In this document: positions 2,161 through 14,684 of the stretch, in pieces | Numbering within the stretch: the stretch's first letter is position 1 | How the letters are laid out: each line of letters starts with the position of its first letter | Source of the DNA: Minisyncoccia bacterium | Lineage (GTDB): Bacteria; Patescibacteriota; Minisyncoccia; Phycocordibacterales; Phycocordibacteraceae | NCBI GenBank assembly: GCA_050011835.1 | Contig: JBEKII010000005.1 | Coordinates: 1-50,934 of the forward strand | Length of the DNA: 50,934 bases | Direction of reading: 5' to 3' | The notes under the pieces: generated by a model | The model's database searches: none | What the model was told of the DNA's origin: nothing | Seen by the model: the letters and a program-made list of their open reading frames with translations, nothing else | Made by a program: the position numbers and the translations under genes

Positions 2161-4698
2161 ATGCGTTATAATAAATCTATGTCTTCGTCATTGGGTATGA
2201 AGAAAAGCGACGTATGTCAATTAAGTCAGTCTGAACTTATCGCGCGCCTTCATACATCAATTGACGGGTTACACCAAGAAGAAGCGAGAAAGCGCCTCGC
2301 CGAATACGGTTCAAACGTGGTGGGCAAAAAGACCGCCAACGCCTCGACGGTCCTCGGCCGCCAATTGAAGAGTTCACTTGTATTCTTGCTTGTCATCGCA
2401 AGCGGTATCTCATACGGTATCCATGACTACATCGACGGTACCGTCATTCTCGCTATCCTACTCATCAATACATCACTCGGTTTCTACCAAGAATACAAAT
2501 CGGAAAAAACTATTGAGAAATTATCGCGATTCATCACAAGGCAGGTGAGACTGAAGCGCGACGGCAAAATAGTACTCCTTGATGAATCCCAGATCGTTCC
2601 GGGCGATATACTGGAGGTACGCGAAGGGGACATCGTCCCGGCTGACTTACGACTTTTTGAGGTTGAATATTTGCAAGTCAATGAATCACCATTGACTGGC
2701 GAATCGGTGCCGGTGATTAAACGCGCCTCAGCCGCGCCACACGCAACGCCAGAAACACTCCTTTTTACGGGCAGTACTATCGAAAAAGGTTCCGGCATCG
2801 GTATGGTATATGCGACGGGAAGAGACACCGAGTTTGGAATGATCGCGAAGTTATCTACAGAAACTAAAAAGAAGACGCAGTACGAAAAATCTCTTCAGGC
2901 ATTCAGTTCTCTACTCATGAAAGTGGTACTGGTCGCGGTAACGCTTGTTTTTATTGCCAAACTGCTTTTTGGTTCCGGCCTCTCAAACGTTACTGCCTCT
3001 CTCCTCTTCGTCATCGCACTGGCCGTTTCAACCGTACCGGAGGTATTGCCGGTTATTACCACTGTCACGCTTTCACGAGGCGCACTGAAACTCGCCAAAA
3101 AACATGTGGTGGTAAAGCGTCTCTCCTCCATGGAGGATTTTGGAAATGTGAGCTTGCTGTGCACCGACAAAACCGGAACTATTACCGAAAATAAAATGGC
3201 GATCCATTCTATTACCTCAAGCGACAACGACCTGTTCCAAAGGCTTGCCTATGCGACGATAACACCACTTAAAGGGAGAAAACGGCGGTCTCAAAATTCA
3301 TATGACGATGCTTTCTTTACGTATGTGCCGGAACACATTCAGCGAGAAGCGCGGGAACTCGCCTTTATCAAAGAGATCCCGTTCGACCCCGATGTCCGCA
3401 GGAATAGGGTCATCATCGAGGACACAAAAAATCATAGGCACTATCTCGTGTCCATGGGAGCTCCCGAGACGCTGATGGACATCTCTGTCACCACCAAAAG
3501 ATCCGAATATCTGCATTCCCTTGCTGAGGAGGGGAAAACCGGCCTGCACCACCTCGCTCTCGCGTATAAAGAAGTCGTCTACACTGATGATTTTGATATT
3601 TTGAAGCAGGAACATGGATTGCATTTCTTGGGATACGCCAGCTTTGAAGACCCGCTCCGACCAAGCGCGAAAATGGCCATCGAGCATGCAGAAAAACTCG
3701 GCATTAAGGTCAAAATACTTACCGGTGACAGCAGAGAAGTCGCTGAATATGTGGGCAAACAAATCGGGCTTGTCCGCGAGAATGAACGGGTATACCTCGG
3801 AGACGAATTGGACGCATTATCCCCCGAAAAATTTAACGACGCGGTGCTTAATTCAAATATTTTCGCACGCGTTTCCCCGACACAAAAATTCAACATCGTC
3901 GCTGCGCTCAAGAAAAAATATGTAGTCGCGTATCAGGGCGACGGCATCAACGATGCTCCAGCACTTAAGCTCGCAGATGTCGCTATCGCAGTCGATACGG
4001 CAACCGACATTGCAAAAGAGAACGCTGATATTGTATTGCTCAACCGAAGCCTTGAAGTAATCGTGAACGGCATGCGGTATGGCCGCTCAATCTTCGTGAA
4101 TATCAACAAGTATATTCGATACACGATGGTCAATAATTTCGGCATACTTATCGCTTTGTCCATTCTGTATCTTTTTTCCGCCGAATTGCCAATTCTCCCT
4201 GTACAAGTACTTTTAAATAATCTCTTCGGCGACTTACCACTCCTCACGGTTTCTTCGGATACTGTGGAGGATAAAGAAGTCGTGAGGCCCGAGCAACACA
4301 ACATCAAAGAACTCATGCTACTGGCGCTTATTCTCGGCGTGCCGACGGCGCTGTTTGAACTCTTGTATTTCTTCGTCATTCGTATGCAGCCAACGCCATT
4401 ACTGCAAACGAGTTTGTATGTATTCTTTACCCTCCAGGCCCTCATTATTTTCTATACCATTAGAACTAAAGACCATTTCTGGGAGACGAAAGCGCCGCCA
4501 TTCTTCATGAATATTTCGTTTGTGGCGGCCTCGGCATTTTCTCTTGCGATCGTCTACATTCCCCGATTCCAAATGTGGTTTTCCTTTGTACCGTTGCCCA
4601 CGATATCGGTTATCGTTATCTTGGCTTCTGTCGTTTTCTATCTCTTCGCGACTGATTTCGTAAAAGTACGATATTACCGAAGAAGCGCCGCGGCCTAA
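2161..4698 (+). CDS. Cation-transporting P-type ATPase (P2/P3-type, Mg2+/Ca2+/H+ class)
   Basis: 845-aa ORF with phosphorylation motif CTDKTGTIT, TGDS, hinge motif GDGINDAPAL and about 10 TM segments. The start could also be ATG 2179 or 2197. Confidence 0.9.
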   Translation: MRYNKSMSSSLGMKKSDVCQLSQSELIARLHTSIDGLHQEEARKRLAEYGSNVVGKKTANASTVLGRQLKSSLVFLLVIASGISYGIHDYIDGTVILAILLINTSLGFYQEYKSEKTIEKLSRFITRQVRLKRDGKIVLLDESQIVPGDILEVREGDIVPADLRLFEVEYLQVNESPLTGESVPVIKRASAAPHATPETLLFTGSTIEKGSGIGMVYATGRDTEFGMIAKLSTETKKKTQYEKSLQAFSSLLMKVVLVAVTLVFIAKLLFGSGLSNVTASLLFVIALAVSTVPEVLPVITTVTLSRGALKLAKKHVVVKRLSSMEDFGNVSLLCTDKTGTITENKMAIHSITSSDNDLFQRLAYATITPLKGRKRRSQNSYDDAFFTYVPEHIQREARELAFIKEIPFDPDVRRNRVIIEDTKNHRHYLVSMGAPETLMDISVTTKRSEYLHSLAEEGKTGLHHLALAYKEVVYTDDFDILKQEHGLHFLGYASFEDPLRPSAKMAIEHAEKLGIKVKILTGDSREVAEYVGKQIGLVRENERVYLGDELDALSPEKFNDAVLNSNIFARVSPTQKFNIVAALKKKYVVAYQGDGINDAPALKLADVAIAVDTATDIAKENADIVLLNRSLEVIVNGMRYGRSIFVNINKYIRYTMVNNFGILIALSILYLFSAELPILPVQVLLNNLFGDLPLLTVSSDTVEDKEVVRPEQHNIKELMLLALILGVPTALFELLYFFVIRMQPTPLLQTSLYVFFTLQALIIFYTIRTKDHFWETKAPPFFMNISFVAASAFSLAIVYIPRFQMWFSFVPLPTISVIVILASVVFYLFATDFVKVRYYRRSAAA

Positions 4699-5441
4699 AT
4701 TTCTATCCGAGAAAAGAAATACGAGCCGAGCACGAGGAATACCACCGTTACCACGGCGAGAACGCTGATATCAAGCATGAGCGGGAAAGTCGCGGTGCCG
4801 ATAAGGAAGTAGCGAAGCGCGTCAACGCCGTAAGAAAGCGGGTCAAAGCGCGCGACTAAAAGCAGGGCGGACGGCACGTTATTCAATGGGAACAGCGCGC
4901 CCGAAAGGAAGAAGAGCGGCATCACGAGAAAATTCATAATGAGCTGGAATCCCTGCATGTCCTTCAAGTTTGAGGCGACCGTGATGCCGAGCGCGCTGAA
5001 GAGAAGCGCAATAAGAAGCATAATGAGAATTGCCGACACGCTGCCGAGAAACGAAGCGGGACGGAAACCGGCAACGATAGCGAGAAGGAGGACAAGAACT
5101 CCTTGAGCGGTTGATACTGTCGCGCCGCCGAGCGTTCTGCCAAACATAATAGAAAGTCGGGAAACCGGTGCGACCATCGTTTCTTTCAGGAATCCAAATT
5201 GCCGGTCCCAAATGACCTGCATACCGTTAAAGATGGCGGTAAAAATAATGGACATGCCGATGATACCCGGTGCGATGAACTCCAGATAATTCCCCTGCCC
5301 CGCTTTCGCGAACACCGGCCCGAGCCCGTATCCGAGCGCAATGAGGAAGAGGAGCGGCTGGCCAAGCGCACCAACAATGCGTGATTTAGAGCGAATGAAC
5401 CGCTTTACTTCCCTAAGCCACATGATGTAAATGGGTTTCAT
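4695..5441 (-). CDS. ABC-2 type transporter permease
   Basis: ORF 4695..5519 trimmed to MKPIYIMWLREVKRF at 5441, 10 nt after the stop of the upstream ATPase gene. Six hydrophobic segments, typical ABC-2 layout. Confidence 0.8.
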   Translation of the reverse strand: MKPIYIMWLREVKRFIRSKSRIVGALGQPLLFLIALGYGLGPVFAKAGQGNYLEFIAPGIIGMSIIFTAIFNGMQVIWDRQFGFLKETMVAPVSRLSIMFGRTLGGATVSTAQGVLVLLLAIVAGFRPASFLGSVSAILIMLLIALLFSALGITVASNLKDMQGFQLIMNFLVMPLFFLSGALFPLNNVPSALLLVARFDPLSYGVDALRYFLIGTATFPLMLDISVLAVVTVVFLVLGSYFFSRIEI

Positions 5442-10041: not shown

Positions 10042-10914
10042 TTATTTGTAAAGTGCCACAGTAGCATCTATAAACTCGTCCAAATCGCCCGCGAGGATGG
10101 AATCGGGGTCGTGGGATTCGTGGCCTGTGCGGTGGTCCTTAACCATTTTATAAGGATGGAGGATATACGAGCGGATCTGGCTGCCCCATTCATTCGCGGT
10201 TGTCGCGGCGATGGAGCGGCCTTTTTTTTCGGTTTCGCGCTCGGCTTCCCTTTTCGTAAATAATTTCGCCTTCAGAAGCTCCATCGCCTTCTCGCGATTG
10301 GCCTGCTGGCTGCGCTCACTTGAAACGTGCACCGAAATTCCAGAAAGAACAGAGCCAACTCGCACAGCAGTTTCTCGTTTGTTTACATTTTGACCTCCGG
10401 CACCCCCCGATTTCGCAAATTGAATTTCAATATCTTCCGGCAACTCAACTTTTTCTGTTGGCGCTAACACAGGCAGAACTTCAACGAGCACAAAGCTCGT
10501 TTGGCGCTTCGCATTCGCATTAAAGGGTGATTGGCGCACGAGGCGATGCACGCCCGCTTCATGTTTTAAGCGTCCATACGCGCCCACGCCCGTTACTTCC
10601 AGCAATACGTTCCGATATCCGCCCTGGCTATTTTCATTCGCATGAAGCTCGCGCACACGCCAACCTTTCCGCACCGCGTAGCTCTCATACATGCGGCGCA
10701 ACATCCGCGCGAAATCTTCTGCATCGTCACCGCCCGCGCCCGCGAGAATGGCTAGGGTCGCATTACCAATGTCATGAGAATCGCCCAAATTACCTTCTTT
10801 GAGCATCTGATATTCCTGCACCAGATGTTGCGCCTTTTCTTTGTCGGACCAAAATTCAGGCGATGTCATCATCGCTTCAAGTTCTTTCATCCTTTTTATA
10901 CTTTTATCTTCCAT
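10042..10914 (-). CDS. prfB: Peptide chain release factor 2, short form
   Basis: SPF tripeptide (VRQSPFNA) and GGQ motif (SGGAGGQNVN). It is only 290 aa, and the ORF starts 8 nt after a tRNA gene. Confidence 0.9.
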   Translation of the reverse strand: MEDKSIKRMKELEAMMTSPEFWSDKEKAQHLVQEYQMLKEGNLGDSHDIGNATLAILAGAGGDDAEDFARMLRRMYESYAVRKGWRVRELHANENSQGGYRNVLLEVTGVGAYGRLKHEAGVHRLVRQSPFNANAKRQTSFVLVEVLPVLAPTEKVELPEDIEIQFAKSGGAGGQNVNKRETAVRVGSVLSGISVHVSSERSQQANREKAMELLKAKLFTKREAERETEKKGRSIAATTANEWGSQIRSYILHPYKMVKDHRTGHESHDPDSILAGDLDEFIDATVALYK

Positions 10915-10921
10915 ATCCTTG

Positions 10922-10994
10922 AGCCGCCTCCCAGGATTGAACTGGGGACCTACGGTTTACGATACCGTCGCTCTACCAGCTGAGCTAAGGCGGC
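10922..10994 (-). tRNA. tRNA-Thr (anticodon CGU)
   Basis: Hand-folded 73-nt cloverleaf: GCCGCCT acceptor, anticodon loop AUCGUAA, T-loop TTCAATC. Confidence 0.85.
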
Positions 10995-11038: not shown

Positions 11039-11304
11039 AGCCGAGAGTCGGGATTGAACCGACGACCTCATCCTTCGCTTACACCTCTTCTTTATTTATG
11101 CAAGAGGGCTAGACTGTATCTTTTCGCCAGAGGCGAACCCTTGTCAGTCGTTCGGGCCCCGACGATATCGTTGGAGCCACGGTCTTATCCATTTATTTTA
11201 TGCGGACGTTAACCGTTATTCGGGATTCACTATTCTGTCGCCAGAAAAGTGGGCGGGGCTAACGGTCCACCATGGATGTGCTCTACCAACTGAGCTATCT
11301 CGGC
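11039..11304 (-). tRNA. tRNA-Thr (anticodon GGU) interrupted by a 193-nt intervening sequence
   Basis: The 5' exon (11304..11269) and 3' exon (11075..11039) join into a canonical 73-nt cloverleaf with anticodon loop AUGGUAA. Confidence 0.7.
11076..11268 (-). ncRNA. Putative group I (self-splicing) intron in the tRNA-Thr anticodon loop, no ORF
   Basis: The insert follows a U and ends in G. It contains a GNRA-capped hairpin, long-range pairings and a terminal hairpin compatible with a compact group I core. No covariance-model check was done. Confidence 0.5.
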
Positions 11305-13304: not shown

Positions 13305-13670
13305 CTATTTATTTATTATCTTAGACAGTATGTGCTTTTGTTCTCCGATGTAGACCTTGTATTCGGCATCCCGCGGGACCTTCAGAATGAGCTTGTTTCC
13401 TTCTATACTGATATTGCCTATCCAATCGTTGCCATAGTAACTTCCAAATTGTCCTATTCCCTCTAGAATAATTTTTCGCCCATCGTAATCGAAGGCTGCA
13501 GACTTGCAGGTCAATTTAATACCTGGATCTTGCCCTCGGAAATAACCTGTGCATCTTCGAACACCTACTATTAGCTCTCCCGTGGGATCAGGCAGGTTTG
13601 GAGCGCCACATCCGACAATCATCATCGCGACAACAAAAAACAAACAGGACTGCAAACATCTTTTCTTCAT
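13305..13670 (-). CDS. Hypothetical lipoprotein
   Basis: Signal peptide with lipobox (MMIVGC), SD GGAAGG upstream, 121 aa, no family recognised. Confidence 0.6.
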   Translation of the reverse strand: MKKRCLQSCLFFVVAMMIVGCGAPNLPDPTGELIVGVRRCTGYFRGQDPGIKLTCKSAAFDYDGRKIILEGIGQFGSYYGNDWIGNISIEGNKLILKVPRDAEYKVYIGEQKHILSKIINK

Positions 13671-13749
13671 TTTTCTACCTTCCTTTCTTGAATGTTTTTC
13701 AAATACTTTCTACGGCTAGAATACACGACTTCGTCTTTTTGTCAAGGCC

Positions 13750-14611
13750 TTGCGCGCGGGTATCCAGACCCAGTTGGCACAGCACCCGTATCATGGAAAC
13801 CATGTACACGCTCAAACAAATACCCTCGGAGGCGCAGATCCGCCGGTTTCTGCGGCGCACGCTCTTCGGCAAAAACGTCTTCTGTCCGCTCTGCCGCTGT
13901 CGAACGGTCCTGCGCTATGAACAACGGTATCGGTGTATGAGATGCCGTCGCCGGTTCTCGCTCCTTTCGCACACCTGGCTCTCGAATCTGAAGCTTCCTC
14001 TGCAAACATGGTGGGCGCTCCTGTGGTGTTGGACGATACGAGAACCGGTTGTGCAAGCCATGGAACTGACTCATCTGCCTGAGAGGACGGTGCGTCGCTG
14101 GTATGCCACTTTTCGAGAGCATTTGCCTCAGGAAGAGCACGTCTTGGAGCGTATTGTGCAGATGGACGAGGCGTACTTCAAGAATGCCGCACTCATGATG
14201 GCGAAGCAGAAAGGGACGAGAAAGCTGGCGGTATGCGGTCATGTACGATCGCTTCCCGGACAAGGCCGACGCCGTTCAGTTCCTGTTCGAGAAGGTGAAG
14301 CCGGGGAGCGAACTGTGGACGGACGGCAGTACACTATACCAAGGCATCGGCCAACGGTGGCCGGTCTCGCACAGCCGGGATATTCATTCAAAATTCGAGT
14401 TCGAGCACACCTCGGAGATCGAAGGAGTGTTTGCCGTATACCGCACGTTCGTGCGGAGGATGTATCATCACCACTGGAGCGAGAACCTCGAACACTATGT
14501 GAGGGAATTCTGCTTCAGATTTTCCTCGCCGGAATTGTTCGGAAATCCGCGCAGTTACTTATTAAAATCGTTAACGCTTGTGCCAACTCGTTAAGGATAC
14601 CTTTGCGCGCC
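13750..14611 (+). mobile_element. IS1595-family insertion sequence (boundaries tentative)
   Basis: Imperfect inverted repeat TTGCGCGCGGGTATCC (13750-13765) / GGATACCTTTGCGCGCC (14595-14611) brackets the transposase reading frames. No target duplication was identified. Confidence 0.4.
13793..14594 (+). pseudogene. IS1595/ISXO2-like DDE transposase, frameshifted
   Basis: N-terminal IS1595 zinc ribbon (CPLCRCRTVLRYEQRYRCMRCRRRF) and VQMDEAYF lie in the frame of 13793. The catalytic C-terminal half (WTDGSTLYQ...HTSEIEG) is in the +1 frame (ORF 14241..14594). The switch is near 14225-14245. Confidence 0.65.
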
Positions 14612-14667
14612 CTCGTGGACGCTGTTGGAACTAGAATACGAGAGCACGAGGGGCATATTTTTATTCC
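14605..14667. repeat. 63-bp direct repeat, copy 2
   Basis: 58/63 identical to 13155..13217, exactly 1450 bp downstream of copy 1. It starts inside the putative right IS end. Confidence 0.85.
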
Positions 14668-14684
14668 GAAATTGTATTAAAAAC

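Follow-up and report, generated by a model that had tools for sequence, protein, structure and literature searches.

A compact intron of probable group I type interrupts the anticodon loop of a tRNA-Thr(GGU) gene in a Minisyncoccia bacterium

The 50,934-nucleotide (nt) stretch of Minisyncoccia bacterium DNA analysed here (hereafter referred to as the window; contig JBEKII010000005.1) contains, on its minus strand, a tRNA-Thr(GGU) gene whose two halves are separated by a 193-nt insert in the anticodon loop, between U36 and A37 (Table 1). Joined, the halves form a 73-nt product that ARAGORN calls tRNA-Thr(GGU), in agreement with the canonical tRNA that a first-pass annotation had read from the sequence alone. 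The 3′ exon ends in the discriminator U, and CCA is not encoded. ARAGORN in default mode reports eight ordinary tRNAs for the window, one of them tRNA-Thr(CGU) at 10921-10994, and nothing at the split locus (11039-11304); a second, intact tRNA-Thr(GGU) was not found elsewhere in the window. The insert folds more stably than shuffled sequences (z = −3.26; 0 of 200 shuffles as good). The same annotation had described it as free of open reading frames (ORFs), and no credible ORF was found inside it, the only one listed, a TTG ORF on the opposite strand that overlaps the neighbouring tRNA as well, being spurious. All positions refer to window coordinates, with intron position n corresponding to window position 11269-n.

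Of all junctions compatible with a 7-nt anticodon loop, only 11269↓11268 and 11076↓11075 (↓, splice site) combine a U before the 5′ site (U−1) with a G at the intron end (ωG), and the 36/37 position, argued on these grounds in the first-pass annotation, is borne out by the homologues described below. ARAGORN in intron mode, run on the unspliced DNA, finds the split gene and a 193-nt intron, with the junction placed 2 nt upstream and the label tRNA-Arg(GCG). That junction was ruled out, as it has a G at position −1. The tRNA-Arg label was also ruled out, because position 20 in the D loop is U rather than A (by eye) and the acceptor stem and discriminator fit those of the neighbouring and orthologous tRNA-Thr genes.

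A search anchored on the adjacent prfB gene (10042-10914) returned 80 relatives, all from Patescibacteria/Parcubacteria (Paceibacteria), the best at 80% identity. In most of them an uninterrupted tRNA-Thr(GGU) lies beside tRNA-Thr(CGU) upstream of prfB, thereby providing the intron-less alleles for which the first-pass annotation had proposed to look. Six of the 80 (L009, L012, L025, L043, L063 and L077) carry an intron of 183-230 nt at the same position. The spliced window tRNA matches the uninterrupted tRNA-Thr(GGU) of the relative L008 at 68 of 73 positions, and this coexistence of interrupted and uninterrupted orthologues indicates that the insertion is precise and the element optional among close relatives. 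The window insert and the six others share near-invariant blocks (GAAUCCCGAAUAACGGUUAA, AAGACCGUGGC, GCCCGAACGACUGACAAGGG, AAGAUACAGUCUA and GUAAGCG↓AA), between which lie hairpins of unrelated sequence.

The 17-mer CGAACGACTGACAAGGG retrieved at least 120 metagenome contigs and 24 IMG/VR contigs. Copies of the tRNA type were delimited by the U−1/ωG rule together with a 5-base-pair (bp) anticodon stem; at least 106 copies from genome and metagenome contigs, at least 102 of them distinct, splice to an ARAGORN tRNA-Thr(GGU), range from 169 to 274 nt and end in G, the last being imposed by the delimiting rule. Local ambiguity of the junction scatters the ARAGORN labels of the unspliced genes of the window and of L081-L200: besides Thr, they are called Arg(GCG) in 39 cases and in others Pro(GGG), His or Leu. 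The 718 kb that surround 102 intron-bearing genes contain 158 other tRNAs, among them 50 other tRNA-Thr, and no intact tRNA-Thr(GGU). All 24 IMG/VR matches and a few of the metagenome matches have the intron in non-tRNA contexts (hereafter the phage-type copies). The intron family is present in a single copy in the window, and the intron, as a mobile element, is optional, moves horizontally and lacks a homing endonuclease gene.

To define the fold, 46 diverse copies with 7 exon bases on either side were aligned with plain MAFFT (alignment A2). RNAalifold, given this alignment and no model input, recovered the anticodon stem together with P1, P2 and P4-P9, arranged as in group I introns; 29 of the 46 pairs are compensated. 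Three elements were added by hand: the pseudoknotted P3, a P9.0 of 2 bp and the pair of P7 that spans the bulge. In the resulting full model, 96.6% of cells pair, as compared with 79.2% in shuffles, and double (compensatory) changes occur at 31 of 52 pairs. The covariation score is 0.487, versus 0.145 in shuffles (0 of 500 reach it) and at most 0.097 when the registers are slid by 1-3 columns. An alignment-free check of 97 distinct introns gave a concordant picture: the P5, P6, P8 and P9 segments, each represented by about 95 different sequences, close with at least 3 bp in 99-100% of the introns (P5 in 99%, P6 in 100%), with shuffled controls averaging about 2 bp.

At the 5′ end, the guide C13-C17 forms P1 with intron G1-G2 (11268-11267) and exon U36-G35-G34 (11269-11271). 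The splice-site wobble U36·G15 is U·G in 45 of the 46 aligned copies, the flanking GG/CC is invariant, and the extension of P1 by two intron pairs (1-2/13-14) covaries. The guide GCC occupies the same position in every listed tRNA-type intron (at least 102 distinct). At the 3′ end, P9.0 forms in 46 of 46 copies, with 21 and 20 double changes at its two pairs (GC/AU/GU/AC variants), so that the 3′ splice site is set by this covariation without recourse to the tRNA. The P9.0 dinucleotide types (A2 columns 199-200/242-243) are mainly GC/GC and AU/AU, with GU/AC and AC/GU also present, and follow intron sub-lineages; with the P9.0 type as a simple marker, the family could be sub-typed.

P3, P4 and P7 are invariant in the tRNA-type copies and are therefore uninformative there, and the phage-type copies were used instead. 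P4, which is flanked by J3/4 GAAUA and an A-rich J4/5 and is aligned by Rfam to the P4 of RF00028 in L063, shows compensatory changes at three pairs in the phage-type copies (A-U/U-A; U-A/G-C/A-U; U·G/G·U/G-C). P7 has the form A-[C]-GACUG/CAGUC-U; in two phage copies, G-C takes the place of its closing pair A118-U158 and the bulged C is at the same time replaced by A. By analogy, G120-C157 would be the expected guanosine-binding pair. P3 (CCC/GGG, 3 bp) is pairable in 100% of copies, its only variants being C-to-U changes that leave G·U pairs, with the 3′ strand fixed by the search pattern. A rescan with a more specific gapped pattern added one locus, L382, which is ambiguous for P3, and a viral scan with the 14-mer GAATATCGGTTAAA, made to sample P3 variation, yielded no new family locus among 118 (chance matches). 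P8 begins directly after the 3′ strand of P3 (U132 following G131) in the window and in all aligned copies.

The comparative model also accommodates a tertiary contact. L2 is a GNRA tetraloop in 87 of 97 copies. Where L2 is GAAA, P8 contains an asymmetric GCUAAG...UAUGC-like motif of the 11-nt receptor class in 44 of 53 copies; where L2 is another GNRA loop (GCAA, GUAA, or GCGA as in the window), a receptor-like P8 occurs in 0 of 34, and P8 is instead a plain G-C helix, as it is in the window. This covariation of L2 and P8 types fits a docking of L2 on P8, a contact that is also a feature of the Azoarcus ribozyme.

These assignments sharpen the pairings drawn in the first-pass annotation. Its hairpin at 18-41 and its pairings ACGGU/ACCGU, UUCGCC-UCU-GGCGAA and CCUCUU/AAGAGG correspond to P2, P4, P8 and P9, respectively, and are upheld by covariation. 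By contrast, its pairing UCCCG(44-48)/CGGGG(108-112) is rejected because it is not conserved in the homologues, and is replaced by P3 (45-47/129-131) and P6 (91-96/109-114). P1 and P7, which it had left unassigned, are now placed.

Table 1. Coordinates of the split tRNA-Thr(GGU) gene, its intron and the three introns of a phage capsid gene
Feature	Sequence	Coordinates	Strand	Remarks
5′ exon of tRNA-Thr(GGU)	window	11269-11304	−	acceptor 5′ strand, D arm, anticodon stem 5′ strand, A32-U33, G34-G35-U36
Anticodon G34-G35-U36, within 5′ exon	window	11269-11271	−	
Probable group I-type intron	window	11076-11268	−	193 nt; ORF-less
Internal guide/P1, C13-C14-G15-C16-C17	window	11252-11256	−	RNAalifold columns 5-9/24-28
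P2 hairpin, 18-41	window	11228-11251	−	GNRA loop L2 = GCGA (11238-11241); double changes at all 9 pairs
P3 5′ strand, C45-C47	window	11222-11224	−	pairs with G129-G131 (11138-11140); pseudoknotted with P7
P4 5′ strand, 53-58 ACGGUU	window	11211-11216	−	pairs with 85-90 GACCGU (11179-11184)
P5 hairpin, GUCC 62-65/GGAU 79-82	window	11187-11207	−	13-nt A-rich loop; double changes at all 4 pairs
P6 hairpin, 91-96/109-114, inner 98-100/105-107	window	11155-11178	−	double changes at 3 of 5 consensus pairs
P7 5′ strand, A118, bulged C119 (11150), G120-G124	window	11145-11151	−	pairs with 153-158 CAGUCU (11111-11116)
P3 3′ strand, G129-G131	window	11138-11140	−	preceded by J7/3 ACAA
P8 hairpin, UUCGCC-UCU-GGCGAA 132-146	window	11123-11137	−	7-32 double changes at all 4 consensus pairs
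J8/7 AAGAUA (147-152) and P7 3′ strand CAGUCU (153-158)	window	11111-11122	−	group I 'S' element
P9.0 5′ strand, G160-C161	window	11108-11109	−	pairs with G191-C192 (11077-11078), directly before terminal G
P9 hairpin, 162-167/180-185	window	11084-11107	−	12-nt loop; double changes at 5 of 6 pairs
Terminal guanosine ωG193	window	11076	−	3′ splice site
3′ exon of tRNA-Thr(GGU)	window	11039-11075	−	A37-A38, anticodon stem 3′ strand, variable loop, T arm, acceptor 3′ strand
Capsid gene intron 1	L215	6280-6469		190 nt; 5′ site GCU↓, guide GGC
Capsid gene intron 2	L215	6746-6935		190 nt; 5′ site GGU↓, guide GCC
Capsid gene intron 3	L215	7569-7752		184 nt; 5′ site GGU↓, guide GCC

The phage-type copies provide a second set of allele pairs. 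A major-head-protein-like gene on the viral contig L215 (weak PHROG 9953 match, E = 6e-4) contains three introns of the family, the junctions of which were predicted by the same rules (U−1·G in P1, and P9.0 and ωG at the 3′ site). Intron-less capsid alleles with 99-74% protein identity (L225 and L226 at 99%), along with an allele that has one intron (L241), are available for comparison, and the intron-less alleles are contiguous exactly across the predicted junctions (DLVYA↓KNPAF, MDGG↓IKNL and NALG↓AKVQ). An alternative 5′ junction of intron 1 after GGUU was discarded, being 6 nt away from the GCU↓ site set by the intron-less allele. A brute-force search for frame-restoring junctions in the phage copies gave too many candidates to be informative, and the intron-less alleles were used in its place. 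A tblastn search with the spliced capsid protein found no match among GenBank phages. In the phage-type copies with a junction readable by eye, the guide is almost always GCC and the target GGU↓, which is exactly what the anticodon of tRNA-Thr offers.

The L215 segment 6187-7977 belongs to IMG/VR entry IMGVR_UViG_3300020570_000137 and is the same as L086 and L248; L222/L249 also belong here. A probable fourth intron, beginning at L215 position 7978, is of a different, IA2-like type (GUGAACGACUAAG ... GCGAUAGUCUGAAC). In L207, L213, L218, L219 and L221, copies of the family lie in homologues of the same capsid gene at other positions (for example, after ...YAIQDYQ and ...GLEGLRVG), and this capsid gene family appears to be a recurrent target of the intron. 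In L208, a family member (4402-4581) lies about 500 nt upstream of a canonical Intron_gpI match (5099-5361, 78.5 bits). By eye, the ORF preceding this family member looks GIY-YIG-like and the upstream ORF in L210 LAGLIDADG-like, and L208 and L210 are intron-rich phage regions.

Rfam contributes a weak and well-placed signal from the relatives. The group I model RF00028 matches L063 with 23.9 bits (E = 0.065 in 63 kb; 3e-4 in 291 nt), L012 with 19.5 bits and the phage copy of L208 with 18.0 bits, each at the correct place and on the correct strand, and it is the only Rfam family to match the relatives. The RF00028 alignment is concordant with the assigned P4, P5, P6, P7 and J8/7. In L063, the J8/7-P7′ sequence AAGAUACAGUC, which is unique in the window, is aligned to the RF00028 consensus AAGAUAUAGUC.

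On this evidence, we consider it highly probable that the insert is a group I intron whose removal by splicing yields a functional tRNA-Thr(GGU), and the group I-type reading of the first-pass annotation is strengthened by homologues at the same site, the RNAalifold consensus, covariation, the weak RF00028 matches, and allele pairs in both the tRNA and the phage capsid genes. The group I hallmarks are present: a U·G pair in P1, a guide directly 5′ of P2, ωG with P9.0, the canonical helix order, a bulged P7 and J8/7. The assignment is supported by architecture and covariation, from which catalysis would be expected by analogy. Several observations weigh against it. The covariance-model check that the first-pass annotation had proposed gave nothing on the window copy itself, as Rfam finds no group I match at the gathering threshold in the window region and no RF00028 match at E ≤ 10 (521 nt), and the scores of the relatives (18-24 bits) are far under the gathering score of 50, a threshold that is a detection criterion and not a biological one. 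P3, with only 3 bp and no compensatory changes seen, is the weakest helix, and P10 has at best 1-2 bp (by eye). The Fisher test of the L2-P8 association (p = 3e-16) ignores the shared ancestry of the copies. About 50 kb of the host genome is covered, so that a second tRNA-Thr(GGU) could lie outside it. Finally, the reduced core could need a protein helper.

This last point leads to the alternative that we regard as unlikely and yet the most serious, namely, a group I architecture whose reduced core depends on a host protein chaperone or cofactor, as in some organellar introns. Among mitochondrial group I introns, several require CYT-18, Mrs1 or maturases, and the 3-bp P3 without extension, the short P5, the lack of extra peripheral domains, the existence of family members as small as 169 nt and the very weak similarity to the Rfam model would all suit such a dependence. 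However, the conserved L2-P8 dock and P9.0 suggest a self-sufficient fold, no candidate cofactor gene is linked, and the occurrence of the intron in two very different contexts, a CPR (candidate phyla radiation) tRNA and a phage capsid mRNA, argues against dependence on a context-specific protein. Moreover, the 205-nt Azoarcus intron, with the same element set, self-splices efficiently (PMC13168695).

Two further explanations, which even together we consider very improbable, deny splicing or the class altogether. If the intron were inactive, the split tRNA-Thr(GGU) would be a pseudogene, with ACC/ACU codons decoded by another gene, and the 50 kb of genome covered leaves room for one. This is hard to reconcile with more than 100 distinct copies that retain intact exons, compensated anticodon-stem changes and compensated intron helices, with a window copy in which every helix is intact, or with the absence of an intact tRNA-Thr(GGU), the refuting gene named in the first-pass annotation, from the window and from the 718 kb flanking 102 loci, where the 50 other tRNA-Thr genes are intact; we give the pseudogene explanation very little credence. 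Still less probable is that the insert is a bulge-helix-bulge intron, a MITE-like (miniature inverted-repeat transposable element) insertion or another ribozyme class. The lack of any Rfam family at threshold on the window copy would be compatible with it, but archaeal and eukaryal bulge-helix-bulge introns differ in having a canonical 37/38 insertion rather than 36/37, the junctions here lie in P1 and beside P9.0 rather than in a bulge-helix-bulge, and the host is a bacterium. Further points against this set of alternatives are the lack of terminal inverted or direct repeats, the invariant U−1/ωG ends, the exclusive match of the relatives to RF00028, and the group I hallmarks of helix order, P7 with its bulge, P9.0 and the sequence of J8/7-P7.

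Taking the insert as a group I intron, we propose the following splicing mechanism, of which the fold and boundaries rest on comparative evidence and the chemistry on analogy with characterised group I introns. The anticodon G34-G35-U36 pairs with the guide G15-C16-C17 to form P1, with the U36·G15 wobble at the splice site and the extension 1-2/13-14. The remaining RNA folds into the two-domain core customary for group I introns, P4-P5-P6 and P3-P7-P8-P9, with the GNRA loop of P2 docking on P8. A free guanosine bound at G120-C157 of P7, beside the bulged C119, would then attack the bond after U36. Subsequently, the terminal G193, placed by P9.0 (G160-C192 and C161-G191), would replace the guanosine, and the 3′-OH of U36 would attack the bond after G193, joining U36 to A37. 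The spliced RNA would undergo normal end processing and CCA addition. Both the two-step transesterification and the self-sufficiency of the intron are thus predicted on the pattern of known introns; the mechanism is the standard one, and the established view of group I introns is unchanged.

These results have practical consequences for genome annotation. Default ARAGORN misses the gene, its intron mode often mislabels it as Arg(GCG), Pro(GGG) or His, and Rfam is silent; intron-bearing CPR genomes therefore appear to lack tRNA-Thr(GGU). Automated annotation would report either this loss or a spurious tRNA-Arg(GCG), and the apparent loss bears on completeness checks and on what is inferred about codon usage. 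In addition, a group I lineage of very compact size, with members down to 169 nt, gains a well-supported comparative structure, and the family ties a CPR tRNA intron to introns of phage capsid genes.

Among the neighbouring genes, the release-factor-like ORF at 10042-10914 (minus strand) encodes 290 amino acids and starts 7 nt downstream of tRNA-Thr(CGU), which leaves no room for an upstream frame. Its relatives align to release-factor residues 1-288, and the short form of the release factor seems to be the rule in the clade. At 13598-14680 and 14241-14594 (both plus strand), two ORFs overlap in different frames; the product of the former has Cys-rich CxxC...CxxC motifs and is, by eye, reminiscent of a frameshift-split transposase of the insertion sequence (IS) type.

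A comparison with known introns places the window intron at a known site. Group I introns in some CPR tRNAs are mentioned in a passing remark by Lui et al. 2021 (PMC8172020), and Williams 2020 (bioRxiv 10.1101/2020.01.27.920355) extends the four classical host/site types to 21, including Thr.5Ug, Thr.3Ug and Thr.2Ug, one of them coded 'Pgr' (read here as Parcubacteria group). The first-pass annotation, which named no tRNA-Thr(GGU) host or CPR-type example as known, is therefore outdated on this point. These two sources were all that we found in the literature on a tRNA-Thr/CPR intron lineage of the present kind. The window intron fits the type Thr.5Ug (insertion after loop position 5, U−1, ωG), which is a category of site and not a lineage. 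The Rfam pre-filter of 18-20 bits used in the preprint would have passed some members of the present family, and its Thr.5Ug counts may already include the present lineage.

The seed Rba53.Thr.5Ug has the same tRNA, the same insertion after U36, the same U−1/ωG ends and the same GGU P1 with a GCC guide, and host and site are accordingly not new. Nevertheless, as judged from sequence, the present lineage differs from this seed, which has a classical IC3 core (AAAUUCGGGGAAA ... CAAUCCCGAGCCAAG ... GGUGUAGAGACCAGACGG ... AAGGGAUGGUCC) and about 260 nt; the family profile scores it at 1.6 bits, which is not significant. IC3 introns are characterised by a 6-bp P3, GGUGUAGAGACUAGACGG and AAGGGAUAGUCC, whereas here P3 has 3 bp and both the closing pair and the bulge of P7 differ. 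Thus, two unrelated group I lineages have settled at a single tRNA site, U36↓A37 of tRNA-Thr(GGU), each by way of an identical 3-bp pairing between anticodon and guide. Against Rba53, Azoarcus and five other seeds, the family profile found nothing significant, the best score being 4.2 bits over J8/7-P7′.

The Azoarcus tRNA-Ile intron (Aol6.Ile2.5Ug) resembles the present one in being compact, ORF-less and inserted in the anticodon loop after the third anticodon base, and its L2 is likewise a GNRA loop that docks on P8. Its P3 has 6 bp (GGUGUC/GGCACC) in place of 3, its P7 is G-[A]-GACUA/UAGUC-C rather than A-[C]-GACUG/CAGUC-U, its J6/7 and J7/3 are unlike those of the family, its host tRNA is tRNA-Ile of a beta-proteobacterium, and it has no detectable sequence similarity to the family profile. 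The 3-bp anticodon-guide P1 with an extension, P2-P9 and P9.0 are also shared (PMC13168695). Self-splicing has been demonstrated for Azoarcus, whereas for the present intron we infer it from comparative structure. The CPR introns Mba143.Tyr.4Ug and Pgr210.Thr.2Ug have similar P3-P4-P6 junctions (GAUAACGGUGAAA / AAUACCGUGG versus GAAUAACGGUUAA / AAGACCGUGG here), an identical J8/7 (AAGAUA), about 200 nt and a GNRA L2. However, they have a 6-bp P3, a P7 of the form G-[A]-GACUA/UAGUCC and insertions at loop positions 4 and 2, and their profile similarity is confined to J8/7-P7′ (the 4.2 bits given above).

Phage introns of subgroup IA2, to which Twort and T4 td introns belong, share another part of the core. 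The canonical intron of L208 (5099-5361) has the P7 signature AACGACU ... GAUAUAGUCU, with an A-U closing pair and a bulged C, which the signature of the present family (AACGACU/AGUCU) resembles, and IA2 introns likewise reside in phage protein-coding genes, sometimes several per gene. They differ in having P7.1/P7.2 between P3′ and P8 (a 40-nt insertion in the L208 alignment) and often endonuclease ORFs, neither of which occurs in the present family, where P8 comes straight after P3′; furthermore, RF00028 gives the canonical L208 intron 78.5 bits, as opposed to at most 24 bits for the family. The distinguishing traits of the family are a 3-bp P3, an IA-like P7, the lack of P7.1/P7.2 and of an endonuclease gene, and a fixed GCC guide for GGU↓; the standard Rfam model overlooks most of the family, and its smallest member has 169 nt, as compared with the 205-nt Azoarcus model. 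We tentatively suggest, with the balance tipped slightly towards doubt, that CPR tRNA-Thr(GGU) and phage capsid genes share an undescribed, unusually small group I lineage with a near-identical catalytic core. If so, phages and CPR bacteria would have exchanged the intron recently, perhaps through reverse splicing, and it might be of use as a marker that links phages with CPR hosts and as a new minimal ribozyme scaffold. Collectively, the kind of intron and its tRNA site are already known, and the window intron is a new member of that kind, from a distinct compact lineage.

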